Below the pieces are notes generated by a model. The model did no database searches. It saw nothing but the letters and a program-made list of their open reading frames with translations, and was not told the DNA's origin. A stretch of DNA of 35,586 bases from a virus. The translations under genes and the position numbers were made by a program. This document shows positions 3,619 through 30,445 of this stretch, in pieces. Numbering within the stretch: position 1 is the first letter of the stretch; every line of letters begins with the position of its first letter. The stretch lies in IMG/VR virus record IMGVR_UViG_3300033066_002009, positions 72,961 through 108,546 of that record; one strand, written 5' to 3'.

Positions 3619-4757
3619 GCGAACGGGTAAGGGCCGTCCATGGCCCCCGACATGTCATTTTCGATGTTCACCGAATCTGTATTTCCGGTGGAATCGAATG
3701 CCCGCCACGCCGACATTGGGGTTTGAGGCCCGGCGCCTAATGGAGGGCTTTTCCGTTGAGACCGTTCTGCGTAAGGGTTTCGAGTTGTCGGACCTGCCCC
3801 GTCGACGATAACGCCTGCACGCCCGAAGCTATCCATTAACGACGCACCGATCTTTTGGCCGTGCGCCTGCATGATCTGGGCGATTTGCGCCTGAGACAGA
3901 CCGGGGAACATGTTTGGATGGACGGCGCCTAGGTTTGGATTGGTGTTGTGTACAGGTCCGCCGTGGATGTTTGAAACGCTTCCAGGCGCCACGGTCTTTC
4001 CGTAAGCTTCTGCGCCGTGAGGATTCATGCGCGGTGCTGGCGAAGGCATCGCCATCCTGCCATTCGGCATACGTCGCGCCATCAATTGCTCAGACATAGC
4101 CTTCCAAGCTTGGTCTTCTGACAAGCCGCTAGCCATGTGGTCAAGCAACGTCATCGGCTTCGCCGACACGGCTCGGAGCATACCTGGCAATGCGTTAATG
4201 CCCGAAACTTTTGCCAGCCCGCCGGTGTTCTGATCAGACTGATTCGCTAGATATTTGTCATCTGCGTTTGCGAGCTGGCTAAACGCGCTAGAGGCTTGGA
4301 TGCCCGGAGGAAGCGTAGAACGCGCACGACTCAGGGCACTGTCAGCTACCGTTGCACTGTGATAGTACGGACTAAGGTGGCTGTCTCCTTTCGACGAAAG
4401 GGAGTCTCTACCGTCTCCGTACATTCCTTGGTTGAAGCCCGCCATTTTTTTTCCGGGCGGCGGCGTTTTCACAGGGCGTGAACAAGCGCCGTAGTGTTTT
4501 GACCTACGACACGTCGTACATAGTTCTTCCGCTAGTTTCCGCGGCTGTGCTACAGCCCCTTGTTGAAGTGAATCGATAGCAGACTCGGTTAACCCCGGTT
4601 TCATAGAGGTTTCCATAGCCTTCGTCGCTTCCGAAGCCGCTCCACCTAGGAGTGGCGACGTCTTTGCTGTTGGGTGTAGACCCCCCAGTGCGACTGACAC
4701 CTTGAAACGGGAGAGGCCCACGATCATGCCCCTCTCGTAAGATTTAACTAGGGTCAT
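3615..4757 (-). CDS. Disordered (G/A/P/M-rich) protein carrying the shared N-terminal motif (380 aa)
   Basis: N-terminus is MTLVKSYERGMIVGLSRFKVSVAL. ATGA overlap with the upstream gene. The rest is low-complexity. Confidence 0.6.
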   Translation of the reverse strand: MTLVKSYERGMIVGLSRFKVSVALGGLHPTAKTSPLLGGAASEATKAMETSMKPGLTESAIDSLQQGAVAQPRKLAEELCTTCRRSKHYGACSRPVKTPPPGKKMAGFNQGMYGDGRDSLSSKGDSHLSPYYHSATVADSALSRARSTLPPGIQASSAFSQLANADDKYLANQSDQNTGGLAKVSGINALPGMLRAVSAKPMTLLDHMASGLSEDQAWKAMSEQLMARRMPNGRMAMPSPAPRMNPHGAEAYGKTVAPGSVSNIHGGPVHNTNPNLGAVHPNMFPGLSQAQIAQIMQAHGQKIGASLMDSFGRAGVIVDGAGPTTRNPYAERSQRKSPPLGAGPQTPMSAWRAFDSTGNTDSVNIENDMSGAMDGPYPFA

Positions 4758-5143
4758 GGAGCCACCGATCCAGGGTTTCCAGTATCCGAGGTTGCAAAGT
4801 TACTATCATTCGCGGTGAACGCTCGGGCAATCGTACTACGTTGCCGTACGCCAGCGTCGGCGGGGTCTCCCCTGACAGCCCCGGCCCCGCCAGTAAATCC
4901 GGCGCCCGCCATGCCTTCCTGTGCTGCCATTTTACCGATTGACGGCAGTTTCATGCTGGCTGACGCGGTGAGCGGATTTTTAGGTATGGCGGCGCCCATA
5001 CCCGACGTAGCCGGGGCTTTAGGCATACTGGCAGGGGGCGGTAGGCCCTGAGTGTTGATTCCGACGCCCTTAAGCGACGGGGCCGCCAGACCAAACTTAC
5101 TTAGGACGTCTACTGCGGCCGCCTCATAGGAGTTCCGCAGCAC
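4754..5143 (-). CDS. G/A-rich small protein with the shared N-terminal motif (129 aa)
   Basis: N-terminus is MLRNSYEAAAVDVLSKFGLAAPSL. Confidence 0.5.
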   Translation of the reverse strand: MLRNSYEAAAVDVLSKFGLAAPSLKGVGINTQGLPPPASMPKAPATSGMGAAIPKNPLTASASMKLPSIGKMAAQEGMAGAGFTGGAGAVRGDPADAGVRQRSTIARAFTANDSNFATSDTGNPGSVAP

Positions 5144-5146
5144 AGC

Positions 5147-5344
5147 TTACTTGCGGAGCTTAGCCGCCAGTGAAGACAGTGAAGACGGGTCTACTGTTGC
5201 GGCCTTCTCAGCGGGGGCGGGCGGCGCGTCAAATAGCCCAAGTTCCGCCGCGGCCTTCTCAACTTCTTCGGCGCTTCCGTAGCCATAGTGCTTGAGAGCC
5301 GCGTTTACACCGCGCTGGTGAGCGATTTCAATCGGAGTTGCCAT
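5147..5344 (-). CDS. Small protein (65 aa) with a diverged copy of the N-terminal motif
   Basis: Carries ...AHQRGVNAALKHYGYGSA. Confidence 0.4.
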   Translation of the reverse strand: MATPIEIAHQRGVNAALKHYGYGSAEEVEKAAAELGLFDAPPAPAEKAATVDPSSLSSLAAKLRK

Positions 5345-5356
5345 TGTCTTACTCTC

Positions 5357-5641
5357 CTATCCAAAGTTCTGTTCACTATAACCGCCAGCCAATCCTGGGG
5401 CTAGATGATCGATGTCTGAAAGATTCCAAAGGTCATCGACAGCGCCCTTGGCCTTTGCTTGAGCGGCCGGGTCTGTCGGGCTCATTGACGGCCTTCCAGC
5501 GTACGGAATCAACGCCGTTCCACTGGAAAGTGTATCACCCGGCGGCTGGACGCCATGGCGGGCACCGAGCACGGCGTCAGCCATTTTATAGCGTACCAGA
5601 GCTGTCATAGCCCCTGTATTATAGGCTTGATTGAGCGTCAT
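5357..5641 (-). CDS. Small protein with the shared N-terminal motif (94 aa)
   Basis: N-terminus is MTLNQAYNTGAMTALVRYKMADAV. ATGA overlap with the upstream gene. Confidence 0.5.
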   Translation of the reverse strand: MTLNQAYNTGAMTALVRYKMADAVLGARHGVQPPGDTLSSGTALIPYAGRPSMSPTDPAAQAKAKGAVDDLWNLSDIDHLAPGLAGGYSEQNFG

Positions 5642-6108
5642 CGATTGAACCTTGCAACGCTACGATATCCGGATCCGAGACTGTTGTACGCCGCTTCCAT
5701 GTTGTTCTGCGTCTTGATCCCGCGTACCAGCTCATCCCATTCTTCCTTGAGAAGGCGGGCAAGCTGGGCATACGCCGCTTGCTTGTCATCAATACCGATT
5801 GGCGCAATGTCTCCATCTTGATACGTCGCTTGGTTCCGGATCTGAAGGAACGTTTCCGACATCATCAAGAATCGACAAGTCCCAAGTAGGAGGACGTACT
5901 TGTTTGGAAACGTGGAGGCTGTAAAGCGCGTCTGAGGCGTAACGGCGTTGAACGCTTCCGCGGCCATCTCTGCCGCGAGGTTTAGCTCGCTGTCGGTGAA
6001 TTGAACGTTCGCCAGGAGGATGTTGTTCTCCGCCTTGTCACGGAGAAACATGCGCACTTGGTCATTGGTAACGACAACTGGAGTCGTTGGAGTGCCGGTG
6101 ACAGGCAT
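5638..6108 (-). CDS. Hypothetical protein (156 aa)
   Basis: ORF in the operon, overlap-coupled to both neighbours. Confidence 0.55.
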   Translation of the reverse strand: MPVTGTPTTPVVVTNDQVRMFLRDKAENNILLANVQFTDSELNLAAEMAAEAFNAVTPQTRFTASTFPNKYVLLLGTCRFLMMSETFLQIRNQATYQDGDIAPIGIDDKQAAYAQLARLLKEEWDELVRGIKTQNNMEAAYNSLGSGYRSVARFNR

Positions 6109-7592
6109 TACTTGGTCTCCTGATTCTGCTGTTCCATAAGTGCCCTGAATTGCTGAATCAGTGATTCCTTGTCAGCACCAAGTTGCGCCAGGTACTCATC
6201 AACTGATTCTCCTGGCTTCTTCCAGCCCCAATTCTCGAGCGTTCCTTTTGGCGGCCGAGTTGCTAGGTATCGTTCAATCTTAACAGACCGCTCGTTTTCC
6301 GGAAGGCTGTCGTGGCTCTTAAAACGGATTCCACGCCCCTCTACCTGCTTGATCTTCTCTTCGTTCCAGTGCGGCTCAAGCATCTGCATTAGCCGCGTTC
6401 CCTTGAGGTCTAGGCCCTCGCCGCCCGCCGATGAAAGTAGTAGCGCCCGTAGCTTGCCCGCGTTGTAGTCCTTTACGAGCTGATCCCGCTCACCGTGCGG
6501 CATCTGACCTGTAAATTCGCCATATGGGATATTTGCTTCCTGTAGTCGCCGCTTGTATGGATTGATTCCGGCGTCTAGGAAGTTCGAATAGATTACGGCC
6601 CGCATGTTCGGGTTGGTTTTGATGCCTTGCTGCAGGTGGTTGAACGCTTCTTGAATTTTCGGCTCCTCGGGTGAGCCTTCAGAAATGTAGGGCCCCGTGG
6701 AGTTCGCGCTTTGACGAGCGCCTGACAAAAATGCGTTCAACTGTTTTGCTTCTCGCTTAGACGGAGGTAGGCCGTGCTTGACCTTGTAAGCGACCCACCA
6801 AGGCGCTTTGTGAAAGAGCGTGTCGTAAACATCGAGCTGCTCCGCTGACATCGGAACTTTAACGTCTTCCCGCTCAACAGTTGGGAAGCCTTCCGTCGAT
6901 CCCGGGTGAAAGTCGACCCACTTGTCGAAGACAGACTTTAGCTCTTTGGTCCGCTTCGGATTGATCTCTGGCCGGACACCCGGGTCCGCGCCAAGCAGGG
7001 ATCCGATAAAGCCAGGGGAGACTGGTTTGTCTACAATGTAGCGGCTGCTAAATACCGCGGGATCTAGGGGTAGTACGTTATCGTGCGCGGCAAGGTCGAC
7101 GAGTGCCGAGATGTCGGAAGGGTGGTTGTAAAACGGTGACGCGGTAAGCAGCAGACGCTTTCCTGCTTGAGATTTTGCCAGCGCCTGAAAGGTGGCCGAC
7201 GACGGATCCCTGGCGCGGTGTGCTTCGTCAACAATCGTAAGAGGCGTCTTGAAGGGCTTACCTTTCATGGCAACATCTTGCATTGAACGTACGTTCAATT
7301 GCTGTCCGCCTCGAATGTGGTTGTCTTGTTCCTTCTTTAGATTGGCCTTGAGAGCCGCTGGAACGATGGCCGTACCTGCCATGCCCAGATCATCCTGGGC
7401 GCCAAGAGCGGTTAGTGTCTTCCCTGATCCTAGTCCGTGGACGACGACCAATCCGGGTTGATCTGGTTGGCGAATACGGTCAGAGACACGAAGCTGGTGA
7501 GGCTTGCGTTCTGTTGTTACGTCGGCAAGCTTGACTAGCCCTAAACGAGATAGGCTAGCCGCGTATCCGTCGTTGTACGAGGCGCGAAGCAT
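6108..7592 (-). CDS. SNF2/DEAH-box superfamily-2 ATPase/helicase with the shared N-terminal motif (494 aa)
   Basis: Walker A GLGSGKT, DEAH box VDEAHR, motif III LLLTASP, and helicase-C motifs SAGGEGLDL and QVEGRGIR. N-terminus is MLRASYNDGYAASLSRLGLVKLAD. Confidence 0.75.
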   Translation of the reverse strand: MLRASYNDGYAASLSRLGLVKLADVTTERKPHQLRVSDRIRQPDQPGLVVVHGLGSGKTLTALGAQDDLGMAGTAIVPAALKANLKKEQDNHIRGGQQLNVRSMQDVAMKGKPFKTPLTIVDEAHRARDPSSATFQALAKSQAGKRLLLTASPFYNHPSDISALVDLAAHDNVLPLDPAVFSSRYIVDKPVSPGFIGSLLGADPGVRPEINPKRTKELKSVFDKWVDFHPGSTEGFPTVEREDVKVPMSAEQLDVYDTLFHKAPWWVAYKVKHGLPPSKREAKQLNAFLSGARQSANSTGPYISEGSPEEPKIQEAFNHLQQGIKTNPNMRAVIYSNFLDAGINPYKRRLQEANIPYGEFTGQMPHGERDQLVKDYNAGKLRALLLSSAGGEGLDLKGTRLMQMLEPHWNEEKIKQVEGRGIRFKSHDSLPENERSVKIERYLATRPPKGTLENWGWKKPGESVDEYLAQLGADKESLIQQFRALMEQQNQETK

Positions 7593-11023: not shown

Positions 11024-11165
11024 CGCCCGACTCCCAACTTCCGGCGCAGGATTTCTAGGCCGCTAGCCGCCTCAACGATTTGTGCACACTTTACACGCTT
11101 CGTTTCAGCTTGGTGTTCGGCTTCTCGTCGAACCTCTGTGGCAAGCTTTCTAAGAGACTCGCCGG

Positions 11166-11393: not shown

Positions 11394-11776
11394 TATAGGC
11401 CTCCACCGCCGGGAAGGATCCCATAGGACTGAAGGGCCGGAACCATTTGACGGCCAATTGCAGGCAGAGCAACACCAGCACCCATGCCAGCGCCAAACGC
11501 GCGATTACGGGTCTTGAGACGCTCTTCCTCGTCCTTCTTAGCCTGGAGGTGCTGGCCGATTAGACCGCCACCGCCAAGACCAAGAGCCAACGGCGCGGCC
11601 ATCAACCCCGTTGTAAATGCCGGATTCCGCCCCAGCAACCCCGGCAAAGTCTTCAATCCTCGCCCCATCCCCGCAAGAGTTCCAGACAGGCTCGCGATCT
11701 TTCCGTTGGAAAGAACGTCCGCATGTGCGGCCTTGAAGAGCTGCCCATATCGGGCAATGTTGGTGGCCGAGTACAT
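11393..11776 (-). CDS. Gly-rich small protein (127 aa)
   Basis: G-rich segments that look like membrane/GxxxG packing. Confidence 0.5.
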   Translation of the reverse strand: MYSATNIARYGQLFKAAHADVLSNGKIASLSGTLAGMGRGLKTLPGLLGRNPAFTTGLMAAPLALGLGGGGLIGQHLQAKKDEEERLKTRNRAFGAGMGAGVALPAIGRQMVPALQSYGILPGGGGL

Positions 11777-11778
11777 GG

Positions 11779-12426
11779 TTATCGAGCAGCAGCCGCCTTT
11801 AGAATTTCAAAGGTGTCGCCATATCCACGCAGGTACGTATCGTGAGCGGTCTTAAATACCCACTCAGTGGCGTCCTTTTCACCCTTCGCGGCGGCAACCT
11901 TGTGCAACTGGTCGAGCTGCATTGAGGTGGTACTAAAGCCGACTTCCGCAGCCTGCTTGATTAGCTCAGGGTTCTCATGCGCAAACTTGTCGAAATCATT
12001 CGACACAGCGGCAGTCTTAGAAGCGGGCGTACGCTCGATCGCGCCCTGATATTGCGCAGCGCGGGCAACTAGTCCGTCATATACGGCAGCACCGAAAAGC
12101 TGAGCACGCTTCACTAGCGCCTCGTGTTCTGCGTTAGCAACTTCCGCAGCGACCTTTTCAAGGTCCTTCTGCGGGTCGGCCGTTGACGCGGTCTTGGTCT
12201 GCCCCGCAGATACTTCTGCAAGGGTATCCTTTAGCGCGCTCTTGAGTGAGTCACTAACGGCAGCCGTCTTTTCGTTATTCACGGTGCCACGATCCACAGC
12301 GACCTTCTCGGCCGGCTGACGGAATGTCTTGAGTACGTCATCGAGCTTGGGCATTTGCCATTCTCCCTCAGTGAGGGCGCGTCTTGCCAAAATCATAGGC
12401 AACGCGCCGTTTAAAACCAAGTTCAC
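11779..12426 (-). CDS. Scaffold-like alpha-helical protein (215 aa)
   Basis: A/K/E-rich helical composition. Lies between the 594-aa gene and the capsid candidate. Confidence 0.45.
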   Translation of the reverse strand: MNLVLNGALPMILARRALTEGEWQMPKLDDVLKTFRQPAEKVAVDRGTVNNEKTAAVSDSLKSALKDTLAEVSAGQTKTASTADPQKDLEKVAAEVANAEHEALVKRAQLFGAAVYDGLVARAAQYQGAIERTPASKTAAVSNDFDKFAHENPELIKQAAEVGFSTTSMQLDQLHKVAAAKGEKDATEWVFKTAHDTYLRGYGDTFEILKAAAAR

Positions 12427-14207
12427 TTCGTTAGCAGTTCACCGATGCGCGCCGCAACTGAATCCATATCAATCACGGGTCCAACAACTTCGTCAATGAA
12501 GGCACTGTGCTTTACTGCACTGGCTACTTGAGCCCCTGCACACTTATCCATTTCTCTGTAGTCCTTGACCAGCTTTAGTACAAAGGCTGCAGTGCGTTCT
12601 TGTGCAGGCGCAAATTCTGTCTCAGCTGGAACATCACCACTGTCTGTTGGCGTCTTCTTCCAATCCCCCGGCTTTAGAGCCGCATAACCGCCGGCTGCCG
12701 CACCTACGCCAATAGGAAGTCGGAATTTGCGCAATGCGGGATTGGCGCTTGTCACCCCATACGCGGCGGACAGTAGCGCGGCACCCCCAAGCATTGTCAT
12801 CATTTGATCGCGGGCCCAACGATCGTGCGCTTCAACGGCAGCTCCGCGATCGGTAGCCATTGGTTGGCCCCCCGGTCCCCTTGCCGTAATCAAATCGGTT
12901 GTCGGTGATTCTTGAGGACGCAGGCCAATTGAATCTGGCACGAGATTACGGAACAAGGCCCCGCTGATGTTTGAATTCTTCTCACGCCTGGGGTCAATCT
13001 TCTCAGCAAGTTCTGGGTCCGCAGTTCCTTCGTCCAACATCCCTGTCGAAAGAACTTCGTCTAGCAACGCCGGAGACTCCGCAAACATCTCGAACAGCTT
13101 ACCCTGCATCGCAACAACTCGATCCGCAATTTGGTCGTCTACTTGCTGACCAGGACACATCATCGACAGCAGATAGTTGAGCATCTGCTTCGTTGTCAGG
13201 ATTACGCCCATAGACGAAAGCGTTGCCATGACGTCGGCGGGTTTACGACGCACCATGTCCGCAATGGGCAGTGGAGCATCTTGTGATACGCGAGGCGTGG
13301 CGTAGTCTTTGAACTTTCTAATTACGTCGGCGTCGGCATGTGGGAGGCTGCTAGACGCGACAGTGTCACCTCGGACGATCTTGTCGATATCCGACAACTT
13401 TCGGATAGCCGCACTCTTCCCTTGCGCGATGCTTGCCGCCTCGCCTAACGCGGCGCCAGAGATCAATTCATAAGGGCGTGAGAAAGCGACCTTTTTAAGG
13501 GTGTATCCCGTTTTGTCCGCGGGGCGGAACACGCGTGAGATATCAAAAAAATTGGGCGACGGATTGTGTACGTAAGCACGGCGACCATCCGGCATCAATT
13601 GGTTCATGCCGGGATCAAATTTTACGTGGTCGCAGTATTGCGCCCGTGACGGCGCCTTGTTTCCACAAATGGAGCACACATCATACTTGATGCGGCACCC
13701 CATGCTGACGGCAGGGAAGTCCCCGTCGTTTACACGGTTGACCCATTCCGGATCTTTTTTGTTGTCAACTACAATAAGGAGTTCAACCCGGTGCATCTTC
13801 GGATTCCAGAACGCCTTTTTCACATAGCCCGACGCCTTCGCTGGATCTTTGTTGACGTGATGCTGGAATACGTGTCCGTTTTCAAAACTGCGATAATGCT
13901 TTGGAAGTTCTTCCCCTGGAGAGATCCAGAAGCCATTGCCTCGACGTGCATTTACAGGGCGCTCTGGAAACCCGTCCCCGTTGCGATTCGGGCCATAGGC
14001 TTCTTCGGAACCGAGGGCCAAGACCAGCATGATCGTCTTGCCGGGCTCGGGCGTCACGTTCTTAACGTAATCCACCGCTTCAGAGGCGTGTTTTGATACG
14101 CCGCCATGTGCGTCCGTGAACGATTTGCCCCCGTGCCAGAGCAGTGCGGGTTGGATCGTTGCTTCCCCGGTCGGGAAGTAGTCATCAAGAAGGATCAGCT
14201 TACGCAT
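12423..14207 (-). CDS. Large morphogenesis protein, possibly a prohead protease (594 aa)
   Basis: The call is from synteny only (it precedes the scaffold-like gene). Contains VSMGCRIKYDVCSICGN...YCDH, a possible metal site. I recognise no catalytic motif. Confidence 0.4.
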   Translation of the reverse strand: MRKLILLDDYFPTGEATIQPALLWHGGKSFTDAHGGVSKHASEAVDYVKNVTPEPGKTIMLVLALGSEEAYGPNRNGDGFPERPVNARRGNGFWISPGEELPKHYRSFENGHVFQHHVNKDPAKASGYVKKAFWNPKMHRVELLIVVDNKKDPEWVNRVNDGDFPAVSMGCRIKYDVCSICGNKAPSRAQYCDHVKFDPGMNQLMPDGRRAYVHNPSPNFFDISRVFRPADKTGYTLKKVAFSRPYELISGAALGEAASIAQGKSAAIRKLSDIDKIVRGDTVASSSLPHADADVIRKFKDYATPRVSQDAPLPIADMVRRKPADVMATLSSMGVILTTKQMLNYLLSMMCPGQQVDDQIADRVVAMQGKLFEMFAESPALLDEVLSTGMLDEGTADPELAEKIDPRREKNSNISGALFRNLVPDSIGLRPQESPTTDLITARGPGGQPMATDRGAAVEAHDRWARDQMMTMLGGAALLSAAYGVTSANPALRKFRLPIGVGAAAGGYAALKPGDWKKTPTDSGDVPAETEFAPAQERTAAFVLKLVKDYREMDKCAGAQVASAVKHSAFIDEVVGPVIDMDSVAARIGELLTK

Positions 14208-21037: not shown

Positions 21038-21092
21038 CAAAAAACTAAAACGCCTCCGGCGCGTGGCCACCGGCCCTCGCGAACGGAGGCGT
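21038..21092 (-). terminator. Rho-independent terminator on the minus strand
   Basis: ACGCCTCCG and CGGAGGCGT form a 9-bp stem around a GC-rich loop, followed by TTTTAGTTTTTT. Only 13 nt separate it from the next start codon, so readthrough is likely. Confidence 0.55.
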
Positions 21093-21115: not shown

Positions 21116-22411
21116 TTAGGCGCGAGAGGCTGCAGCGTTTACGATTGCCCTAAGCCGGAGGCCTAGGTCACTCGCCTCCTTCTTGTCATCGTCCTTCTTG
21201 CACTCACAAGGCGACTTACCACACTTCTCGCACTTGTCGTCCTTCTTCTCGGAGTCCTTCTTCTCAGGCTCCTTCTCACTCATGTTGGCCATGAAGGCCG
21301 GGAGTCCGCCGTCCTCCGCCTTCTTCTGATTGGCCTTGGCGCCATCATAGCCCGAGTATCCACTGGTGTACTTCGGGGAGCCTGGAACGAACTCCGGATT
21401 TGCGTTAGCAGCGGTCTTCGACGCGATCTTCTGGTGGAGCCCGTGGATGTAGTGGGCCTTCTCAGCAACGTCTAGATCCATCATCGCCTGAATGTGACCG
21501 ATCTTCTCGTCTTCACCTAGACCATTGGGAAGATACGGCACGATTTCCCGGGCAGCCTTGCGGAACACTTCAACATATCCCGCGGCCTTGGCCGAATGCT
21601 GTGTCAACGAGTTGCTGCCGTCGACGGAGCGGCTGGGCCCGTTGGGCATCGCCATTTCCTTGCCCACGATGGCAGGGCCGGTGACGAGGCCCGGAATTGC
21701 GCCGGGTGCACCCTGATGCGGCAGAACCGCGTAACCAGCTGGGCGGGCAGCCAGGTCCATCTTGCCTTCGGCAGTGGTGGGCTCCTTGTTGCCCTTGTCG
21801 CCCCCTTCAATGTTCGAGCCCATTGCAATCTTGCGCAGGGCCTCAGCAAGTGAAGAGGTCTTGGACGCGTCAATCACCGTGTTATCGCCAGACGGCGAAT
21901 TAGCGGGTGCCGCAGGATGGGGCTCTTCCTTGCCGACGGCGCCAGGGCGCGTGTCGACCTCAGTCTTGCCCGCACCGCCAGCTCCGTTCTCGCCCTGTGC
22001 GGCGTAGCCGTCCGGACGTGCCTTCTCGTCCATCTTGCCTTCCGCGGTAGTGCGCTCGGTGTTGCCCTTGTCGCCGCCTTCATAGTTCGAGCCCTCAGCG
22101 AGCTTCATCAAGTGGAGCGCATGAACCTGCGCAACCTTTGACAGATCCTGCTGAGACGCAACCTTAGCGGTCGGGCCCGGCCGGTAGCCCTGCTGGGCCA
22201 GTTCCGCCGAAGCGTCGATAAGGTGCTCGGCGATCTTGGCCGTCACTTCACGTGACACACTGGCCGCCTGGAAGCCGTTCATTACATCAAAATCGACGTT
22301 GTCGGCGATGTAATCCGCGATCTTCGCGGCTGAATCTTCGTCGGGGTATGCAGCGTGCCCGGCCTGTACCAGCGCACCCTGAATTCCGCGAACGTATGCC
22401 TTCTTGAACAT
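21116..22411 (-). CDS. N-motif protein with a ~91-aa internal tandem duplication and a Lys/Cys-rich tail (about 431 aa from MFKKAY)
   Basis: The repeat units are GSNYEGGDKGNTERTTAEGKMD... and GSNIEGGDKGNKEPTTAEGKMD.... The C-terminus carries CEKCGKSPCECK. SD GGGAGA precedes the ATG at 22411. Confidence 0.6.
   Translation of the reverse strand: MFKKAYVRGIQGALVQAGHAAYPDEDSAAKIADYIADNVDFDVMNGFQAASVSREVTAKIAEHLIDASAELAQQGYRPGPTAKVASQQDLSKVAQVHALHLMKLAEGSNYEGGDKGNTERTTAEGKMDEKARPDGYAAQGENGAGGAGKTEVDTRPGAVGKEEPHPAAPANSPSGDNTVIDASKTSSLAEALRKIAMGSNIEGGDKGNKEPTTAEGKMDLAARPAGYAVLPHQGAPGAIPGLVTGPAIVGKEMAMPNGPSRSVDGSNSLTQHSAKAAGYVEVFRKAAREIVPYLPNGLGEDEKIGHIQAMMDLDVAEKAHYIHGLHQKIASKTAANANPEFVPGSPKYTSGYSGYDGAKANQKKAEDGGLPAFMANMSEKEPEKKDSEKKDDKCEKCGKSPCECKKDDDKKEASDLGLRLRAIVNAAASRA
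21646..22111. repeat. Intragenic tandem duplication of about 275 bp, two copies
   Basis: The DNA copies cccttgtcgcccccttcaatgttcgagcc (~21781) and cccttgtcgccgccttcatagttcgagcc (~22061) lie ~280 bp apart. Confidence 0.5.
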
Positions 22412-22492: not shown

Positions 22493-22699
22493 TTATAGAA
22501 TAGGCTTCGCATTTGGGGCGATCGGAGCGCTCATAGCATGCACAGGATTCCCTGACGATCCTGCTGCGGCTCCTGGTGCCGGTGTCGGCCCCGCATTGAT
22601 GGATTTCATTGGAAATTGCCCTACGCCAATAGCAGCGCTTCCTAGTTTAAATCGAGCAATCTTGGCGTTCCAGCCGGTGATATACGCGTCTTGAATCAT
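22493..22699 (-). CDS. Small protein with the shared N-terminal motif (68 aa)
   Basis: N-terminus is MIQDAYITGWNAKIARFKLGSAA. TGATG overlap with the upstream gene. Confidence 0.45.
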   Translation of the reverse strand: MIQDAYITGWNAKIARFKLGSAAIGVGQFPMKSINAGPTPAPGAAAGSSGNPVHAMSAPIAPNAKPIL

Positions 22700-23346
22700 C
22701 AGTAAGAACTCACTTGGCCGTAGGGTTGATAAGGAATTTCTTCCTGGAGCGGCGCTTGCTGCGCCGCGAATTGTTCTTGAGCCAGTTGGGGCCGGGGCTT
22801 ACTGCCCAGGAGATGGCCAACACCGCGACCAAGGCGCTCTCCGGCTCCACCGCCAAAATGTGCTCCTACCATGCCCCCCATGCCGAACCCGACGAGGTTT
22901 CCGGCCTCCCGGCCTGCCGTGCTAAGAACATTCGTCATGGTGCCCTCGTTAGGGTCCCCTTGTCCGAGCGCCGCGCCACCAATTGCCATCGCAGGCAGCC
23001 CTACGCCTAGTCCCCGCCATAGCCATTTCCCTGCGCGTTGGTGGAGCTTGTCGGGTGGCATAAGTGACCCGTTAAGCATGTGCGGGGCGTTGTGGATCGT
23101 CGGCCATAGCGCTTCCCGTACAGCACCGCCGCGCCGGAATGCGTCGCCAGACACTAAATGAGAGATGCCTTCGGCCGGATTTCTCATGCGGCCGACCGCC
23201 ATGTTTATCCCGCCGTCCAAAAGCCCTTTCCCCCATCCCATAGCTTTTTGGCCAAGGGATGCCGCTGCCGCAGAGGGAGCGGCTGTCTTTACGCCATAGC
23301 GCGAAAGACTGCGGTTAAAAGAGGCGTTGTAAACGGTTTGTAGCAT
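22699..23346 (-). CDS. G/A-rich protein with the shared N-terminal motif (215 aa)
   Basis: N-terminus is MLQTVYNASFNRSLSRYGVKTAA. TAATG overlap with the beta'-C gene. Confidence 0.55.
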   Translation of the reverse strand: MLQTVYNASFNRSLSRYGVKTAAPSAAAASLGQKAMGWGKGLLDGGINMAVGRMRNPAEGISHLVSGDAFRRGGAVREALWPTIHNAPHMLNGSLMPPDKLHQRAGKWLWRGLGVGLPAMAIGGAALGQGDPNEGTMTNVLSTAGREAGNLVGFGMGGMVGAHFGGGAGERLGRGVGHLLGSKPRPQLAQEQFAAQQAPLQEEIPYQPYGQVSSY

Positions 23347-25151
23347 TAGTACGTTCCGGTAGGCCCTTCACCGAATTCTCCGCCAAACGCATATGCGGGA
23401 ACAGGGTTAGTTCCGTGAACCTTACTTGAATCAGAACGGTGAGCGCCCGCAAGAAGGCCCTCTCCGAGGAACCGGTGTGCGAGCCGCGCCATCCAGTCCG
23501 GATTTAGTAGCGGAGTGCGTTCAGCAGGGCGCATGAAGGGCTCTACAAGTGGCGCTTTGTGGGCAATGTGAACGCGCGTCACGTGATTCCGTTTTAAGTC
23601 GTCCTCAACGCTCTTAGTGATTCGGGTGCCCGCTGTGAAGTGGAGCACGTCATCCGCTAGGGTTTCCCCGAGAGCGTCCTCAAGTGGCAACTCTTTTCGC
23701 GAGCCGGCCAAGAACGTTTTATATTTATTGTAGTCGATGATGTCACCGCGCGTGAGCCCATTATCCTCGTCATCCCCTGTATCTACTACACGGACGTGGT
23801 TCAGAATCGATTTAGCCATTGTTTCAAAGTGGCGCTTGTCGATCTCAATTCCCTGGCTTTTGTAGATGTTGAACATTGCATCGGTGAGGTACTTGCGGCC
23901 CGCACCAAGGCCTTTGTATTGAACTACTTCATTTGGGCGAGGGATTCCATCGGAAAGGGCGTCACCGGACTCTACTTTCTGCCCCATTGATACAACGACA
24001 TCTAGGCTTGGCTCGATATAGTGTCTCTCACTGTCAACCCAAACGTAGTGTCCGCCTTGCGGTGCGGTTTCAATCTTCGTTACGGTTCCGTCGTGGAAGG
24101 CCAAGGCCGCCGCATGAAGAAATGACTTCGGAATCTGAAGCATCTGCTCCACACCCTTAACGCCTTCAACGGTCTTTTCTTTTTTAAGCTTGGCAAGATC
24201 CTTCGCGTGCTTGGCGCCTAGTGCGAACTGCGTCAAGGGTTCCGCCATGGACTGCGCGGCTCGGACACCAATATTGGTACCAATCGCGTGCAGGCGACCA
24301 TACGGATCTAGCCCTTCGCACTTCTGACAAAGGCCGTCATTCATCTCACATGTCATTGGCGAGCGAACGATCACGTCACCGCCAAGTGCTTTCAATTCAG
24401 AGGCAATATGTGGAGTAACCATGGTGCCCGCTTTGACGGTTCCCTTGTCATGTGCGGTGTACCGGTCGATGATGTGCGGGTCGTCCGTGTGCATCGCAAG
24501 GCCGTTGCGTGTCCCGCAATCGTTTTGGACGATCAACTTGTCAGCCATGTTGTTGACCAGGATCTTTCCGAGGTCTCCCGGTTCCGAGACGGCTGTTCGC
24601 GTCTTAATTTCGTTTACTCGAGCCTCTGTCATGGCGGCCCACGCCTCTGAAGGGCGAAGACCCTCCGCATAGCTTCGAATAATCGGCCACGGAATAACTT
24701 GGTCTTTGTCGCCAGACGCGAGTACGGGAGCAGCAACACTTCGCATCAACTGCGGAAAATTTCCTCGGCCGCCGGATCGGGCCATCTCACCCATCGAGCC
24801 TGGATGGCGCTTTGTCAACTCAATCATCGGGGCGAGGCCTTTGATCAAAGCCTGTTGCTTGTCGACTACAGACTTTGCCTTATGAAAATCCGCTAGAATT
24901 GGCTTCATAATGGCGTCACGCTGCTCATACATTGGCGTGATGTCATCGATACCCACAGAGATCCCCTCCAACGTGGAGATTTCGTCGCCTAGGCGCTTGA
25001 GGGAAGAGACGATCCCTGGGTACTCATCAGGCTTGGTTCGGGCCAAGTCGACAAGGATGTCCCGCATGCGGCCCTTCGTCAGGGGGCCCTTCCCGTCATA
25101 TTCTTTTGGGAGAACGTCGTAGACAAGGCGCTCCCCGAGAGAAGTCGCCAT
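23346..25151 (-). CDS. RNA polymerase beta' subunit, C-terminal half (rpoC2/A''-like split subunit, 601 aa)
   Basis: The segment RSPMTCEMNDGLCQKCEG...HAIGTNIGVRAAQSMAEPLTQFALGAKH matches the bacterial beta' region around the trigger loop (VRSxxTCE..GxCxKCYG..GxxxGxIAAQSIGEPGTQ). Confidence 0.85.
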   Translation of the reverse strand: MATSLGERLVYDVLPKEYDGKGPLTKGRMRDILVDLARTKPDEYPGIVSSLKRLGDEISTLEGISVGIDDITPMYEQRDAIMKPILADFHKAKSVVDKQQALIKGLAPMIELTKRHPGSMGEMARSGGRGNFPQLMRSVAAPVLASGDKDQVIPWPIIRSYAEGLRPSEAWAAMTEARVNEIKTRTAVSEPGDLGKILVNNMADKLIVQNDCGTRNGLAMHTDDPHIIDRYTAHDKGTVKAGTMVTPHIASELKALGGDVIVRSPMTCEMNDGLCQKCEGLDPYGRLHAIGTNIGVRAAQSMAEPLTQFALGAKHAKDLAKLKKEKTVEGVKGVEQMLQIPKSFLHAAALAFHDGTVTKIETAPQGGHYVWVDSERHYIEPSLDVVVSMGQKVESGDALSDGIPRPNEVVQYKGLGAGRKYLTDAMFNIYKSQGIEIDKRHFETMAKSILNHVRVVDTGDDEDNGLTRGDIIDYNKYKTFLAGSRKELPLEDALGETLADDVLHFTAGTRITKSVEDDLKRNHVTRVHIAHKAPLVEPFMRPAERTPLLNPDWMARLAHRFLGEGLLAGAHRSDSSKVHGTNPVPAYAFGGEFGEGPTGTY

Positions 25152-25153
25152 GG

Positions 25154-25540
25154 TTAACCGAACATCCCCCCGAGGTCATGCTTCATGCGCGCTGTGTTGA
25201 TGTAGGGCATGTCGTTTTGGTCCGGGGCGGTGGCGCGGCCAAGCATGCCCGCGCCAAGAAGGGCGCCACCGCCTAGGGCCATGCTGGGCAATAGACCTTT
25301 TGCGGCCCCCATCGCCTGGCTACGGCCAAGCGCTCTCACGCCTTCTTGAACACCTGGGACTCCCGACGAGTGCATCATCCCGTTGATTCCGGTGCCAAGA
25401 TCGCGCATGTGGCTGCCTTGACCCCCTAGGAAACGACCAACAGCGCTGCCCATGTTTCCGAGGGAAAACGCTTCCTTCTTGATGCCGTAGCGGTGTAGCG
25501 CCGCGGTCATACCAACTTCGTAGGCTTGCTTGATGGTCAT
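25154..25540 (-). CDS. Small protein with the shared N-terminal motif (about 128 aa from MTIKQAYEV)
   Basis: N-terminus is MTIKQAYEVGMTAALHRYGIKKEAF. TAATG overlap with the upstream ORF. The longer track ORF (from 25630) would overlap its neighbour by 90 nt. Confidence 0.5.
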   Translation of the reverse strand: MTIKQAYEVGMTAALHRYGIKKEAFSLGNMGSAVGRFLGGQGSHMRDLGTGINGMMHSSGVPGVQEGVRALGRSQAMGAAKGLLPSMALGGGALLGAGMLGRATAPDQNDMPYINTARMKHDLGGMFG

Positions 25541-25965
25541 TAGAACACAGCTCCATTGGATGCGCCGCCTGCCGGATTTCCTAGGACGTCTCCAGAGTTT
25601 CCGGCGGCAGGGTGGGTAGCAGGGCCCCATGACGTTGAGCGGTCAAGGGGATCTTTCTTCGCGCTTGGGTCGATAGTTCCTGGCGGCTGGGGCAGCGACT
25701 GAAGAAACGCGGCCAACGCTTCCGCTGGAAGGTGATCGTCTGCCTGTGGCTCTAACGGAGCGAGCCCATGTTCCGCGCTCTTTCCGGCACCTTTTTCAGA
25801 GACGTTCCGTAGGGTTCCGTCCATCCCATGGAATCCGCGAAATGGCCGAATCTTCAGACGGACTTCGTCTGACGCCGCAGTCTTTACCCCAAAACGGGAA
25901 AGAGCAGCCCACGCCGCAACCTTGTAGATGTGGGTGATGGAGCAATTATTTGGCATGTACGGCAC
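25540..25965 (-). CDS. Small protein with the shared N-terminal motif (141 aa)
   Basis: Carries ...ITHIYKVAAWAALSRFGVKTAA. It lies 8 nt downstream of the RNAP fusion gene. Confidence 0.5.
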   Translation of the reverse strand: MPYMPNNCSITHIYKVAAWAALSRFGVKTAASDEVRLKIRPFRGFHGMDGTLRNVSEKGAGKSAEHGLAPLEPQADDHLPAEALAAFLQSLPQPPGTIDPSAKKDPLDRSTSWGPATHPAAGNSGDVLGNPAGGASNGAVF

Positions 25966-25972
25966 GTTCTAA

Positions 25973-28900
25973 TTATAGTTCGCTCTTCTTGTTAATGTCG
26001 ATCGGGTCGGAGAGGTTGATTTCTCCTCGGTGGTACGCCGCAAGAGCATGGCCCTGTGATTCAAAGCTCTTTGAAGCCATGGTGCCCGCAGGCTGTGTTG
26101 CACGGTGAAGCCCGATAACTGCTTCCATGTCGGGGGCCACGTTAAGTGGGTCTGACTTCTTCTCGCTAAAAATAAGCTTTGATAGCGTCATGTTCTTGAC
26201 GTCTTCAATGCCCTTGAGGGTTACAGGCGCGTGCACTTGAATTGCGTCACCATCGTAGTCCGCGTTCATCCCGCGCTCTGCGAACGGATTCAGGCGAATG
26301 GTCTTGCCCGACGTCAACTTGGGATACGCGCCAATTACTCCGAACCGATGTAGTGTAGGCGCGCGGTTAACGACGACCGGGCGCTCTTTCGTTTCGATCA
26401 GAAGCTCTTCTCGCGCCAAGGGGTTCTTTTCCTCGACCATGCGCTGTGCGTCAAGAGCAGGGTAGCCCTTCCGTACAAGACGCCCGATCAAGAACTTAGA
26501 GTACATCTTCCAGAGCATGTCCTCCGGGATTCCGATCTCATCCATGTCTAGTGTCGGGTCTGGGGCGATCGTTGCGCGCCCCGATACGTCCTGTTGCCGC
26601 ATCATAATTTTCGACTGGAAGAACCCGTTCTTTGGCCGAGTACCGTTAATCTGCATCAAGAAGCCTTGAGCGTTTCGCTTCTTCGCTTTGGGGCTCTGCG
26701 GCTCTTCCGTTCCAAACACGGACCCAACGGCCTTGTAGACGTGCATACGAATTGGTGCTAGCTCTGTGTTAGGCAGTCCAGCTTCGTCTAGTTCTTGAAG
26801 CTTCTTATTCGCCAAGAAGGCGTCTGTGTAGAGCAGATTCACGGGCTGTGTCAGTAGTCGCCCATCCTTCAGGGGCACAATCTGCCGCATGATAGGCGGG
26901 ATTACCGGAACCTTACTGAGGATGTACGCCTTATCAGGCGTTAACCCTTGGGACTTTAGCGCCGTCAGATACTTGATCTGCTTTACGGCACTGTCGAGGC
27001 TAGGGCCTTTCAACGTCTTACTCTGAGCCTTCAGCTCTTCGATTTTCTTGTCCATGTCGATTTTAGACAAGGCGTCTTTGAAATAAGCCCCTCCCTGCTG
27101 GGAATGGAAATCCTCGAATTGCCGCTGTGTTAGGCTCAATAGACGCCGAACAGGCTCCTCAAATACCGGGTTGACGATCGGCTCGTGAAGCTGCATGTGT
27201 GCCCACTTCGTCCCGGTCAAACCTCCGGTCAATACCGGGTCGAAGAGACCGCCCTTTTCAGGCATCAGGTTTTTAGCCTTGATGTGGTAGGCATTTTCTA
27301 CAGGACCAGATGACATCTTTTCAATGTCAGCGTCCGTCATCGGTCCCAGCGTCAACCGTTGACCGTCTTTGTTCACTTTGACGCCGGCACCTTCCAGCAT
27401 TGTCAGGAATTTGTCATACGCGAATGTCGTTTTAGGCGACGGCACCGGCAGCCCCAGCTGAATAGCTCGCCAGAATTCGTCGTTCTTTTGGCTCTTAATT
27501 GACGCGGCTTCCCGCAAAACGTTTCTCGCGTTGTGTGCGACAAGTGCATCAAACTCCATCTTACCGATGCCCTTCGCACCCTCGTCGCCGCCTCGGCTAG
27601 GTTGCTGGTTAATGTCGTATTTTTCGGGACCGTGCGCAGACCAGTTAGTGTAGGCGCTCTTGAACAGCTTAAGAATGTAAGAACGGCCCACGAATACACC
27701 GGGGATGCTTTTCCCCGTAATCGGGTCGTAGACTGTCTCCTTGTCCTTAAGGCCGTGTTCCTTGAGCAGCCCCTTTACCCATTTCACATTGTCGCGGTCT
27801 TCAAAATTATCGATGGCGATAGGCTTGCCGGTTTTTTCTGCAACCTTGCCCAGTGCCGCTTCGAGAACCTGCGCCGGGTTTACACGGCTAATGATGCCGG
27901 CAGAGGTGAAGAGCACGTCAATGGGATTGCCCTTTTCATCCTTCACCATCTGCGCGTCAGGTACGATTTTTGCGATTACTCCCTTGTTGCCGAAGCGTCC
28001 TGAGAGCTTGTCACCGACATTGATGGTTTCCCATGTCTTAACCGTTACGGAGATGACGTGAGGCGTCTTGACCACGTCAATTACTTCTCCAGGTGTTTCA
28101 TGGTGCCAGTCTTCAACCTCTTCCCTGTAAGGCGTCACAAGAGAGCGCGACAGCTTACCGAGCAACGCCGCGTCTCCGGTGATCTGGCCTTTCCGCGCAG
28201 CCACAATAACGGGGTCACCGGGCTCGATCTTTGTTCCCGGCTTAACAACGCCTTCGGAGTCCAGATTGTCATACTGACGAGCCTTGTAGCGCATTCCGAA
28301 GTACGTACGGTGAAGCTCTTTGTCGTTTAGGATGTCGTTATCCCGCCGCATATCAATACGATACATGTGCTCGGAAACGAGTTTATCTGCAGCACCTTGT
28401 GAAACGACAATTCCGTCGTTGGAGTTAAGCCCCCGATAGGCCATATATCCAACGGACATATTCTTGCCGAGGCACAGGGTATCGTTCTTGGTGAAGTTAG
28501 ACTCCGCCAGGGGTTGACCCGCTTTTACATCTTCACCCGCCCGCACCTTGATGGTGTTGTGCAGGTAGGTCTTCGCGGCGAGCGGGAAGTGGTCGTCATA
28601 GTGGAGCTTGATCAGCCCGCTATCCGCCGCTGCATATTTATCTACGTGATCGTTGTAGAACCACTCCCCGTCTCGATCGGAAGATGCCTTCGTGGCTTTC
28701 GGACGGATGTAAATCCAGTCATCGTCAATTCGCTCGATAGTCCCGTCCACTGGAGATGTAGGCACCACCTTTAGCGCCATTTCCTGCTCTACCGTGGTCC
28801 CCGGCCACCAGGACTTGACCTGTACGTGCGGGGGCTCCCGGTGAACCAGCGGCAGCGCCTGCGACTGGTGCTTGGAAGCCATGACGATGCGGTTACCCTG

Positions 28901-30445
28901 CATGCCGTTGAGGAACGGCAAGAGGTTCGTCGTTGGGCCGAAGAGATTGGCTACATGGGGAACCTGATAGTCAACTTCATGCGGGCCGACGTCTACGATC
29001 TCTCCGTCTTTCATCGCGTGAACAACAGGGAGGCCCGGGGCGCCATTTCCGACCTTTTCCGTCGGAAAAGCCACTACTTTTTCAGCGACCTCGTTTGGCC
29101 GCAAGTATTCAATTTCACCGGTCTTCACGTTTCGAAGAGGGGTGTATAGATTTCCCTTATCGTCTCGCCGGGTTGCCAATGCAGTTCGAATATCGATGCC
29201 CGTCTTGAAGCTCTCTGGCGTTCTTGACGGATCCATGATTGCGAAGTGCGTAGGGTGCAGCTGCCGCGCTTCCATTGGAACGGCACGCTCACTTGAAATA
29301 CCGCCCTCACCCATGGGAGTGACCTTGCACATCTGGTCCATCAATTCCATGGGGTTGATCTGCTCGGGCTTCTGAGCACGCTTTGAAGTAGACAGGAACG
29401 TGATTACTCCGCGCGTAAACGGCGAGGCTGGTACTGCCTTTCTCATGTCACCACGAGACGCCTCCAGCTTAATGCCGATCTTCGTCTTCAGGGCCTTGGC
29501 ATCGAGGCCAATACGCTCTTTGATAGAGTCGTCTACACCGTGGAAGGTCTTGAACTCGAGGCTATCTCTATCGTCAGTGTCGATGGCATTACGGTGAACA
29601 TCTAGCAATTTCTTGGCCGCGATCAATAAAGCCATCGGTGTAACGTGGTCAAACGCCTGCCCCAACGTGCGCTTCGTGACGTCGGGGTCCATCCGCGTCA
29701 TTTCATAGTAACGATGAAGCTGCCGAACGCGTTCTTCGTGAGTAGCAGCAGGGGCTGCACCTGCCGGCTGAATCCAGTAACCCAGCTTGTCGTACAGTTT
29801 TTGTACGTGGCGCTCCGTATTTTTTTCCGTTGCTACCTTATTTACGTCAGCCACCTGGCTACCCCACTGAGTAGAAATGTCTTGGTGGGGGACGCCAAGC
29901 GCCCGCAACACAGGGTACAACGGGATCTTTGTAGTCTTGTGTTCCAGCCGCAGCACGCCCTCTTCCGGATCCATTGCAATTCGGAAGTTGTCACCGCGCG
30001 CCAGGTTGAACGCCGCTTCTAGATCTTCATTGCCGCGCTTTCGTGTGTAGACGCCCGGCTTTGTACGAATCTGATTTGCGATGTTGTATTCGTTGCCGTC
30101 AATGATGAACGTATGCCGCGGTGTAAAGTACGGCAGGTGCATCAAGGTAAAGTTCTTTGCCTGCGATACAACAGCGCCCTGTGTGTCCTTTACGAGGATG
30201 TCTCCGACCACACGTTCGTGGAGCGTCCGAGCTTCAAGGATTGCGCGCTTTTGGTCGCGGGACGAAAACGACTCCTCCTGGACGCGCGGGTTCGTCAATT
30301 CCACCGTGAAGTTTCTCGACTTCATAGGGAAAGCAGCTTGTACGCCCTCTAGGGCCTTGCGTCGGATGTGCGCTCGGTGGTCTGTGGCGTCCATAAGGAC
30401 TGGTCGGATGCCGGCGGACTCCGCGTCACGTTCTGAAATTGGCAT
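25973..30445 (-). CDS. Fused RNA polymerase subunit (1490 aa): a beta-like N-terminal ~950 aa joined to the N-terminal ~540 aa of beta'
   Basis: Beta-like motifs are FIIDGNEYNIANQIRTKPGVY and GRFGNKGVIAKIVPD...NPAQVLEAALGK. Beta'-N motifs are AHMQLHEPIVNPVF, VPVIPPIMRQIVPLKDGR, GRATIAPDP, NRAPTLHRFGV and NADYDGDAIQVHAPV. The beta' N-terminal zinc-finger cysteines are not visible. Confidence 0.9.
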   Translation of the reverse strand: MPISERDAESAGIRPVLMDATDHRAHIRRKALEGVQAAFPMKSRNFTVELTNPRVQEESFSSRDQKRAILEARTLHERVVGDILVKDTQGAVVSQAKNFTLMHLPYFTPRHTFIIDGNEYNIANQIRTKPGVYTRKRGNEDLEAAFNLARGDNFRIAMDPEEGVLRLEHKTTKIPLYPVLRALGVPHQDISTQWGSQVADVNKVATEKNTERHVQKLYDKLGYWIQPAGAAPAATHEERVRQLHRYYEMTRMDPDVTKRTLGQAFDHVTPMALLIAAKKLLDVHRNAIDTDDRDSLEFKTFHGVDDSIKERIGLDAKALKTKIGIKLEASRGDMRKAVPASPFTRGVITFLSTSKRAQKPEQINPMELMDQMCKVTPMGEGGISSERAVPMEARQLHPTHFAIMDPSRTPESFKTGIDIRTALATRRDDKGNLYTPLRNVKTGEIEYLRPNEVAEKVVAFPTEKVGNGAPGLPVVHAMKDGEIVDVGPHEVDYQVPHVANLFGPTTNLLPFLNGMQGNRIVMASKHQSQALPLVHREPPHVQVKSWWPGTTVEQEMALKVVPTSPVDGTIERIDDDWIYIRPKATKASSDRDGEWFYNDHVDKYAAADSGLIKLHYDDHFPLAAKTYLHNTIKVRAGEDVKAGQPLAESNFTKNDTLCLGKNMSVGYMAYRGLNSNDGIVVSQGAADKLVSEHMYRIDMRRDNDILNDKELHRTYFGMRYKARQYDNLDSEGVVKPGTKIEPGDPVIVAARKGQITGDAALLGKLSRSLVTPYREEVEDWHHETPGEVIDVVKTPHVISVTVKTWETINVGDKLSGRFGNKGVIAKIVPDAQMVKDEKGNPIDVLFTSAGIISRVNPAQVLEAALGKVAEKTGKPIAIDNFEDRDNVKWVKGLLKEHGLKDKETVYDPITGKSIPGVFVGRSYILKLFKSAYTNWSAHGPEKYDINQQPSRGGDEGAKGIGKMEFDALVAHNARNVLREAASIKSQKNDEFWRAIQLGLPVPSPKTTFAYDKFLTMLEGAGVKVNKDGQRLTLGPMTDADIEKMSSGPVENAYHIKAKNLMPEKGGLFDPVLTGGLTGTKWAHMQLHEPIVNPVFEEPVRRLLSLTQRQFEDFHSQQGGAYFKDALSKIDMDKKIEELKAQSKTLKGPSLDSAVKQIKYLTALKSQGLTPDKAYILSKVPVIPPIMRQIVPLKDGRLLTQPVNLLYTDAFLANKKLQELDEAGLPNTELAPIRMHVYKAVGSVFGTEEPQSPKAKKRNAQGFLMQINGTRPKNGFFQSKIMMRQQDVSGRATIAPDPTLDMDEIGIPEDMLWKMYSKFLIGRLVRKGYPALDAQRMVEEKNPLAREELLIETKERPVVVNRAPTLHRFGVIGAYPKLTSGKTIRLNPFAERGMNADYDGDAIQVHAPVTLKGIEDVKNMTLSKLIFSEKKSDPLNVAPDMEAVIGLHRATQPAGTMASKSFESQGHALAAYHRGEINLSDPIDINKKSEL

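Follow-up and report, generated by a model that had tools for sequence, protein, structure and literature searches.

How large phages choose the enzymes that they load and inject – polymerases, helicases, anti-defence proteins – is known in detail only for a few models, T4 among them. Phage P1 packages its Dar anti-restriction proteins in the head, DarB being targeted by its N-terminus. In phiKZ and AR9 the fifth subunits of the non-virion RNA polymerases (RNAPs), gp68 and gp226 respectively, are sigma-like. In T4, internal and ejected proteins are loaded by means of N-terminal capsid targeting sequences (CTS), some 10-20 residues long, which bind to the prohead core (PMC7411985). The phiKZ-like giant SPN3US has a multisubunit virion RNAP (five subunits) in its head together with many small ejected proteins, and N-terminal propeptides have been proposed to target proteins to its prohead (PMC7411985). 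Here we compare with these systems a locus in a 35,586-nucleotide stretch of viral DNA (positions 72,961 to 108,546 of IMG/VR record IMGVR_UViG_3300033066_002009; hereafter the window, for the whole stretch), in which four small open reading frames (ORFs), O1 to O4, flank the gene for an RNAP subunit and share an N-terminal motif of about 22 residues, which we call the tag. An earlier reading made from the sequence alone (the sequence-only reading) had proposed that the four are sigma-like accessory or specificity subunits of the RNAP or, alternatively, adaptors that carry the polymerase into the capsid. The first proposal came out as unlikely; the second, widened to adaptors or cargo tied to capsid loading, appears to fit the evidence better.

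Among isolates, Vibrio phage D181 and Salmonella phage Arash come closest, with about 31% identity in the RNAP subunit beta'C. They share with the window, in unchanged order, an RNAP made from two genes (a fusion of beta to the N-terminal part of beta', here beta-beta'N, and beta'C), an SNF2 helicase, a protease, a capsid protein and a number of virion proteins; in contrast, O1-O4, the tag and a 431-aa protein encoded beyond O4 are all absent there, and the Arash helicase gene follows directly after beta'C. The likeness to T4 (IPI-III and Alt) lies in a short N-terminal peptide on otherwise unrelated proteins, a location among head genes, and an encoded prohead protease. In T4 the CTS-bearing cargo is delivered with the DNA, whereas here the cargo role is putative; the tag is longer (about 22 residues), presents a GxxxA-type face, stands on a helicase and on glycine-zipper proteins, and comes with no recognisable T4-type cleavage motif. 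SPN3US belongs to a different lineage, and its propeptides run to 100-130 residues, whereas the tag is short and conserved in sequence and the two RNAP genes of the window encode no N-terminal extension. With P1 Dar the locus shares the combination of a large helicase-type enzyme and small partners, with capsid entry by N-terminal determinants (presumptive here), but there is no homology and nothing indicates an anti-restriction role. What O1-O4 have in common with gp68 and gp226 is that they are phage-specific proteins associated with a split multisubunit RNAP; however, they resemble these neither in sequence nor in fold, are far smaller and for the most part disordered, keep company with the RNAP in one clade only, and share their tag with proteins unrelated to RNAP.

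Nearly all genes of the window lie on the minus strand, where they form a single tightly packed array. The beta-beta'N gene (25973..30445, minus strand; 1490 aa) is recognised by Pfam Rpb2_6, Rpb2_2/3 and Rpb1_1/2 and by PHROG RNAP beta families, and the beta'C gene (23346..25151, minus strand; 601 aa) by Pfam Rpb1_5 and by 31% identity to Arash gp216 and its D181 homologue; both products are untagged, and the earlier identification of the flanking genes as RNAP genes is thereby borne out. Between them lie O1 (25540..25956, minus strand; 138 aa) and O2 (25154..25540, minus strand; 128 aa), the latter starting at an internal ATG of a longer mechanical ORF; after beta'C come O3 (22699..23346, minus strand; 215 aa) and O4 (22493..22699, minus strand; 68 aa). 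Family alignments support O1, O2 and O3, and an independent gene caller, applied to a Logan contig of the same sequence, called all four ORFs identically (138, 128, 215 and 68 aa). For O1 the ATG at 25956 is likelier than the GTG at 25965 that had been preferred previously: it is the gene caller's choice and aligns with the MPE/MPQ starts of relatives. The sequence-only reading had joined all four ORFs to their neighbors by TAATG or TGATG. Three junctions are indeed 1-nt stop-start overlaps (O1/O2 and beta'C/O3, TAATG; O3/O4, TGATG), but the other two are short gaps: 7 nt if O1 starts at the GTG, or 16 nt if it starts at the ATG, between the beta-beta'N stop and O1, and 2 nt (TAAccATG) between the O2 stop and beta'C. 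A spacer of 81 nt lies 3' of O4. Because 24 of the 30 junctions of the array overlap or are no more than 20 nt apart, tight coupling characterises the array at large and does not set the RNAP genes apart.

Related loci were recovered by an alignment-based scan with beta'C, which returned 40 metagenome and 79 IMG/VR loci (99 sequences once duplicates are removed, the longest contig reaching 198 kb); a scan of viral contigs with the single beta'C protein gave no matches, and no close DNA relative was present among 50,697 phage records. In nearly all recovered loci beta'C is 41-59% identical to that of the window.

The tag reads M-[LIV]-x2-A-[YH]-x2-G-x2-[DA]-A-L-x-R-F-[GK]-[LIV]. All four ORFs carry it at or near the N-terminus, as had been noticed from the sequence: O1 as SITHIYKVAAWAALSRFGVKTAA (about residues 6-28; 25873..25941, minus strand), O2 as MTIKQAYEVGMTAALHRYGIKKEAF (25466..25540, minus strand; at 30.5 bits the best match to the tag profile in the window), O3 as MLQTVYNASFNRSLSRYGVKTAA (23278..23346, minus strand) and O4 as MIQDAYITGWNAKIARFKLGSAA (22631..22699, minus strand; 26.3 bits). 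The profile was built from the N-termini of the relatives' O2-O4 proteins only. Across all loci it matches 158-183 ORFs at E<=0.01, compared to none in a reversed-sequence control, and the matches are always on the strand of beta'C. Outside the O1 family 148 of 152 matches (E<=0.05) begin within three codons of the start codon; within it, 13 of 31 are not at the start, the tag sitting behind an N-terminal extension. Since this canonical profile misses divergent tags (for example YxxGxxxxLxxLGLxKxA and FxxELEKIA), the counts are lower bounds. A tag-only profile, too short for database-wide statistics, had seven matches among 1.84 billion representatives, six of them to the window's own proteins.

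Conservation within the tag is greatest at G9 (98%), A13 (94%), L14 (84%) and F17 (73%), and on a helix A5, G9, A13 and F17 would share one face, a face of small residues; beyond the tag, conservation is only moderate at positions 20 (K 38%) and 22 (A 44%). The tag is helical in both AlphaFold2 (AF2) models, those of O1 and O3 (helices 7-21 and 2-16), with moderate to good confidence. Its hydrophobic moment is low (0.03-0.17), which rules out an amphipathic, membrane-binding helix and leaves a helix-packing face: the pattern suggests sequence-specific helix-helix docking rather than lipid binding. The segment LSR[FY]GVKTAA recurs in two of the four ORFs, as the sequence-only reading had it, namely O1 and O3. 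At the DNA level 7 of 30 bases differ between these copies, and six of the differences are synonymous; selection therefore acts on the peptide, and both a nucleotide-level signal and a recent duplication can be discarded as sources of the shared motif. A [VIL]-K-E that is frequent after the tag in O3 relatives is absent from the window copies. Pairwise BLAST among the window proteins finds similarity confined to the tags, so that O1-O4 are not detectable paralogues outside them.

The tag is also found far from the RNAP genes. At least nine ORFs of the window carry it, one being an SNF2-type helicase (6108..7592, minus strand; Pfam SNF2-rel_dom and Helicase_C) whose N-terminus is MLRASYNDGYAASLSRLGLVKLA. 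This helicase is homologous to Arash gp217 (E 3e-87) with about 25 residues added at the N-terminus – the tag – and Arash gp217 has no such extension. Four more tagged ORFs (94, 65, 129 and 380 aa; 3615..5641, minus strand), some 17-20 kb farther on in the array, are inserted between the homologues of two Arash virion proteins, gp233 and gp234, whose genes are direct neighbors in Arash itself. The profile that matches the tags of O1-O4 also finds the helicase and three of these four ORFs, each at its predicted start; the motif of the 380-aa ORF is below the profile threshold and was recognised by inspection. Among helicase homologues elsewhere the N-terminus bears a canonical tag (locus L138), a variant FxxELEKIAKVK, or no tag (the Arash-like group). 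The helicases of L131, L132, L136 and L152 open not with the canonical tag but with a related motif, [FW]xxELEKxAKVK, and such variation suggests that sub-clades use different versions of the tag.

Rearrangements of O1 show the same modularity. In L084 and L168 a holin-like gene splits O1 in two, and each half has a tag at its start; a large set of O1 relatives of 99 aa consists of the tag and the C-terminal half only; and in L168 (591-1283; P0057) the C-terminal half of O1 is fused in frame to O2 with both tags retained, although this fusion is known from a single 1.3-kb contig that contains a run of N and could be an assembly artefact. To judge from where it occurs, the tag behaves like a portable N-terminal address label that would be used only by genes of the head/structural array, even where the bearer is an enzyme.

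The sequence-only reading had named synteny with the RNAP genes in relatives as a test of an RNAP-linked role, and synteny is what was found. Families were placed by iterated local profiles: O1 in 56 loci, upstream of beta'C on the same strand; O2 in 34 loci (first round), immediately upstream; O3 in 92 loci, immediately downstream; and O4 in 47 loci, always after O3. Homologues of O3 with 32-52% identity each follow beta'C directly and are themselves followed by an ORF of 65-75 aa and then by a gene of about 420-440 aa, and even the most divergent are still positioned at the beta'C stop codon. The tight junctions are kept as well, with a 1-nt O1/O2 overlap in 22 of 26 loci and a 4-nt O3/O4 overlap in 31 of 46. 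Co-occurrence was counted in the 87 loci whose flanks were long enough. All four families are present together in 34 of them, O3 alone in 26, O1 together with O3 in 7 and O1 alone in 9, and in 11 none is detectable; O1 lies upstream of beta'C on the same strand in 50.

The contents of these slots nonetheless vary. L108 has different small ORFs, tagged or Gly-rich; in L084 and L168 the holin-like gene is present; L095 is missing both O3 and O4; and a LigD-type primase-polymerase/3'-phosphoesterase protein (474-512 aa) sits between the RNAP genes in L103 (8448-9986), in L122 (8566-9990) and on the P0027 contig. The L103 copy of this protein opens with the motif MPYSSPAQRAAIW. The small proteins evolve faster than beta'C: in comparison with L004, identity is 81% for beta'C, 52% for O3 and 35% for O4. 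Near the RNAP genes of Arash and D181 no homologue of O1-O4 or of the 431-aa protein was detectable. These tag-less relatives do have a small ORF of glycine-zipper type (51-59 aa) near the RNAP genes (D181, L002 8576-8755; Arash gp212, L001 7196-7351), for which no homology to O2 or O3 was detected.

Beyond the tag the four proteins differ in organization. In the family alignment O1 consists of the tag, an EELRLKIPxRxFHG motif, an acidic linker, an LAxxLxxL helix and DPLDRxTxWG...GD; the window copy has RLKI-x-P/FHG after the tag and DRSTSWG...GD after the acidic linker. Its AF2 model (pLDDT 60, pTM 0.23) is ordered only in the tag helix and in helix 78-87, and O1 is accordingly predicted to be mostly disordered. 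Many O1 relatives carry ahead of the tag an element, MPFKSxAQRRxxFAxxPExAKEWxxxTPxGKKLPE, that is absent from the window O1 and has no Pfam match (examples are L055 9116-9574, L008 318-773, L095 9646-9999 and L084 8992-9315). O2 (20% Gly) runs from the tag through a Gly-rich region and a hydrophobic segment to a polar tail that is basic and Gln-rich. The hydrophobic segment is a glycine zipper, GLLPSMALGGGALLGAGML (25241..25297, minus strand; Kyte-Doolittle maximum 1.43), conserved in the family as LKTLAPSLLAGGxLY. In O3 a disordered linker separates the tag from the conserved motif GDPNEG, beyond which lies a helical hairpin of glycine-zipper type (residues 100-179; 22810..23049, minus strand), modelled by AF2 as helices 100-126 and 136-179 at pLDDT 83-92 (71 for the whole protein). 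The O2 segment and both O3 helices are hydrophobic to a moderate degree (Kyte-Doolittle 1.26-1.43), with repeated small-xxx-small spacing. O4, a low-complexity protein, has after its tag an Ala/Pro/Gly-rich tail that ends in a conserved ...APNAKPIL, and is largely disordered.

Searches with O1-O4, as single proteins or as family profiles, returned nothing meaningful from Pfam, PHROG, PDB sequences or Foldseek; the O1, O2 and O3 family profiles had chance-level matches only against all PDB chain sequences, and the O3 model had no Foldseek match. A weak tape-measure match (E 0.08) and a weak profile match of O3 to the N-terminal glycine zipper of the gene-transfer-agent protein 6tba (E 0.1) were treated as compositional. 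Pfam glycine-zipper models matched one of 38 O3 members (E 0.033) and no O2 member, and none of O1-O4 has a coiled-coil signature.

The setting of these genes is that of the head. Downstream of the RNAP genes the array holds homologues of Arash gp218 (a virion protein), gp219, gp222, gp226 (major capsid protein) and gp233-235, so that the RNAP genes are embedded in a head/structural array; the homologue of gp222, itself a virion protein in Arash, has a head maturation (prohead) protease domain (12423..14207, minus strand; phrog_18299, E 3e-14). The capsid protein gene of the window lies at 9177-10097, and scaffold candidates lie at 10667-12426. The array with its capsid protein, protease and virion-protein homologues is co-directional, and the association with head genes is one of position, from which the timing of expression is presumed. 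Between O4 and a large structural gene lies the gene for the 431-aa protein (21116..22411, minus strand), which has a tag-like N-terminus, MFKKAYVRGIQGALVQAG, two internal repeats, and homologues in 91 loci. Mass spectrometry of Arash virions gave gp206 (beta-beta'N) the highest spectral count and also detected gp216 (beta'C) and the helicase gp217 (PMC10585845). From gene position, and from this detection in a distant relative only (31% identity), we infer that the RNAP of the window's phage is packaged in the virion.

Taken together, these features lead us to favour, with about even confidence, a reading in which O1-O4 belong inside the head, as cargo, ejection or core proteins, with the tag as a helix for incorporation into the prohead. 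O1-O4 would then be small proteins, specific to this lineage, from the head (late structural) array of an uncultivated phage with a genome of about 110-200 kb and a two-gene multisubunit RNAP. The tag helix would serve as a modular docking signal that draws otherwise unrelated proteins into the assembling head, either by binding a partner in the core, scaffold or portal or by forming a bundle with the 431-aa protein, whose N-terminus is tag-like; this protein, which occurs only in the tagged clade, is a candidate docking or bundling partner. O1 and O4 would be disordered proteins made of short linear motifs. O2 and O3, given their glycine-zipper hydrophobic segments, may act on the host membrane after ejection. 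O1-O4 would sit among the RNAP genes because the RNAP, too, appears to be packaged in the head and is encoded in this array, and their position would not be a sign of a catalytic or promoter-specificity role.

Several observations weigh against this reading. No clearly conserved protease cleavage site follows the tag, and the hydrophobic segments of O2 and O3 stay under classical transmembrane thresholds. The virion mass spectrometry for the lineage is that of tag-less Arash, and the purity of that sample is uncertain, because the list of 116 'virion' proteins includes metabolic enzymes (PMC10585845); the Arash authors themselves note that abundant enzymes could be carry-over contaminants (PMC10585845). 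Arash moreover appears to package its RNAP and helicase without a tag, which means that the tag is not required in the wider lineage. Two further observations fit an RNAP-linked role as well: the 1-nt beta'C/O3 overlap is kept in 63 of 85 loci, and in relatives, over 10 kb to the left and right of beta'C, no ORF other than those flanking beta'C bears a canonical tag.

These last two points are among those that would be expected if O1-O4 were packaging adaptors, whose non-tag motifs bind the untagged RNAP while the tag docks into the prohead, with coupling setting the stoichiometry. Both RNAP subunits do lack the tag, O2 lies directly before and O3 directly after beta'C, and the linear motifs of O1 (EELRLKIPxRxFHG and DPLDRxTxWG) are strongly conserved. 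Against such a role stand the orthologous RNAPs of Arash (where it is virion-associated) and D181, which do without O1-O4, the loci that lack O3 and O4 (L095) or have a LigD-like enzyme between the RNAP genes (L103, L122), the much faster evolution of the small proteins, and the normality of tight junctions in this array. We regard the adaptor role, which is a special case of head cargo and not in contradiction with it, as possible but doubtful. A fuller version, in which small tagged O1-O4 are co-translated with the untagged RNAP and dock both it and the tagged SNF2 helicase into the prohead core via the 431-aa protein, we consider unlikely. O1-O4 might instead be core or scaffold components of the prohead that are degraded or expelled and do not remain in mature virions, the tag helix being an oligomerisation element. 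Their disordered or low-complexity composition, the maturation protease of the array, the small-residue helix face, which suits bundling, and the conserved 431-aa protein next to the large structural gene agree with this; but a helicase, which bears the same tag, is an unlikely scaffold, and O1-O4 show neither a coiled-coil signature nor evidence of cleavage after the tag, and this alternative, too, seems to us an unlikely one.

The hydrophobic segments of O2 and O3, and the holin-like gene that occupies the same slot in L084 and L168, raise the prospect of membrane proteins acting in the infected cell – in lysis control, superinfection exclusion, or a membrane-bound site of replication or transcription – with the tag as a localisation signal. 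Such an explanation is improbable, as a hydrophobic segment is lacking in O1, in O4 and in the tagged helicase, the hydrophobic moment of the tag is low, and the O2 and O3 segments fall short of the usual transmembrane thresholds and, with the one O3 member noted above (E 0.03), leave the Pfam glycine-zipper families unmatched. Most improbable is the proposal with which the analysis began, that O1-O4 are sigma-like or other specificity or accessory subunits comparable to gp68 and gp226. It had in its favor the conserved place inside the RNAP gene pair and the tight coupling. However, O1-O4 resemble neither sigma nor any solved chain or known family, and at 68-215 aa they are largely disordered or, in O3, a simple hairpin, with no folded multi-domain protein among them; Arash and D181 have the same RNAP without them; slot contents vary within the clade, with all four families in 34 of 87 loci and none in 11; and the tag is shared with proteins that are unrelated to RNAP and encoded at a distance from it. 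Arash, in addition, has a separate sigma-like protein, gp10 (PMC10585845).

Head cargo with a docking helix thus remains the reading we prefer, and the result corrects the assumption that genes between RNAP genes must encode RNAP subunits. What the window offers is a sequence-defined, modular N-terminal motif that a helicase and about nine small proteins have in common, in a widespread clade of uncultivated phages. Were the motif a loading signal, the injected proteome would be predictable from sequence alone, a second, independent case of peptide-directed loading of capsid cargo would be in hand, and the motif would be a candidate handle for packaging foreign proteins. Were there a dedicated loading system of the fuller kind described above, a peptide of about 22 residues, unrelated in sequence to the T4 CTS, would programme the injected enzymes and would be both portable and engineerable.

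Some minor features of the region remain. A near-consensus match to a sigma-70-type promoter (TCGACA, 18-nt spacer, TATAAT; 11 of 12 positions) lies at 25972-26001 on the minus strand, overlapping the beta-beta'N stop just upstream of O1; since a scan of the region for promoters and terminators gave counts at chance level, it may mean nothing. A weak terminator-like hairpin with a T-run lies at 21050-21062 (minus strand), in the 97 nt that separate the 431-aa gene from the structural gene beyond it: if real, it would make the RNAP genes, O1-O4 and the 431-aa gene one transcription unit. The two repeats of the 431-aa protein read LxKxAxGSNxEGGDKGNxExTTAEGKMDxxARPxGYA, and its Lys/Asp-rich tail has a cysteine cluster, CEKCGKSPCEC. 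The structural gene (18097-21018, minus strand; 973-975 aa) encodes the homologue of the Arash virion protein gp218 (615 aa), with a very long Met/Gly/Pro-rich low-complexity region of GGDPSM/MGGxPxM repeats (residues 600-850, approximately) that the Arash protein lacks. In some relatives (L129 1-5334, and the P0027 contig) the beta-beta'N genes encode 1900-2300 aa, expanded by inteins with LAGLIDADG endonuclease domains, and Vibrio phage D181 has homing endonuclease genes next to its RNAP genes and interspersed with them.

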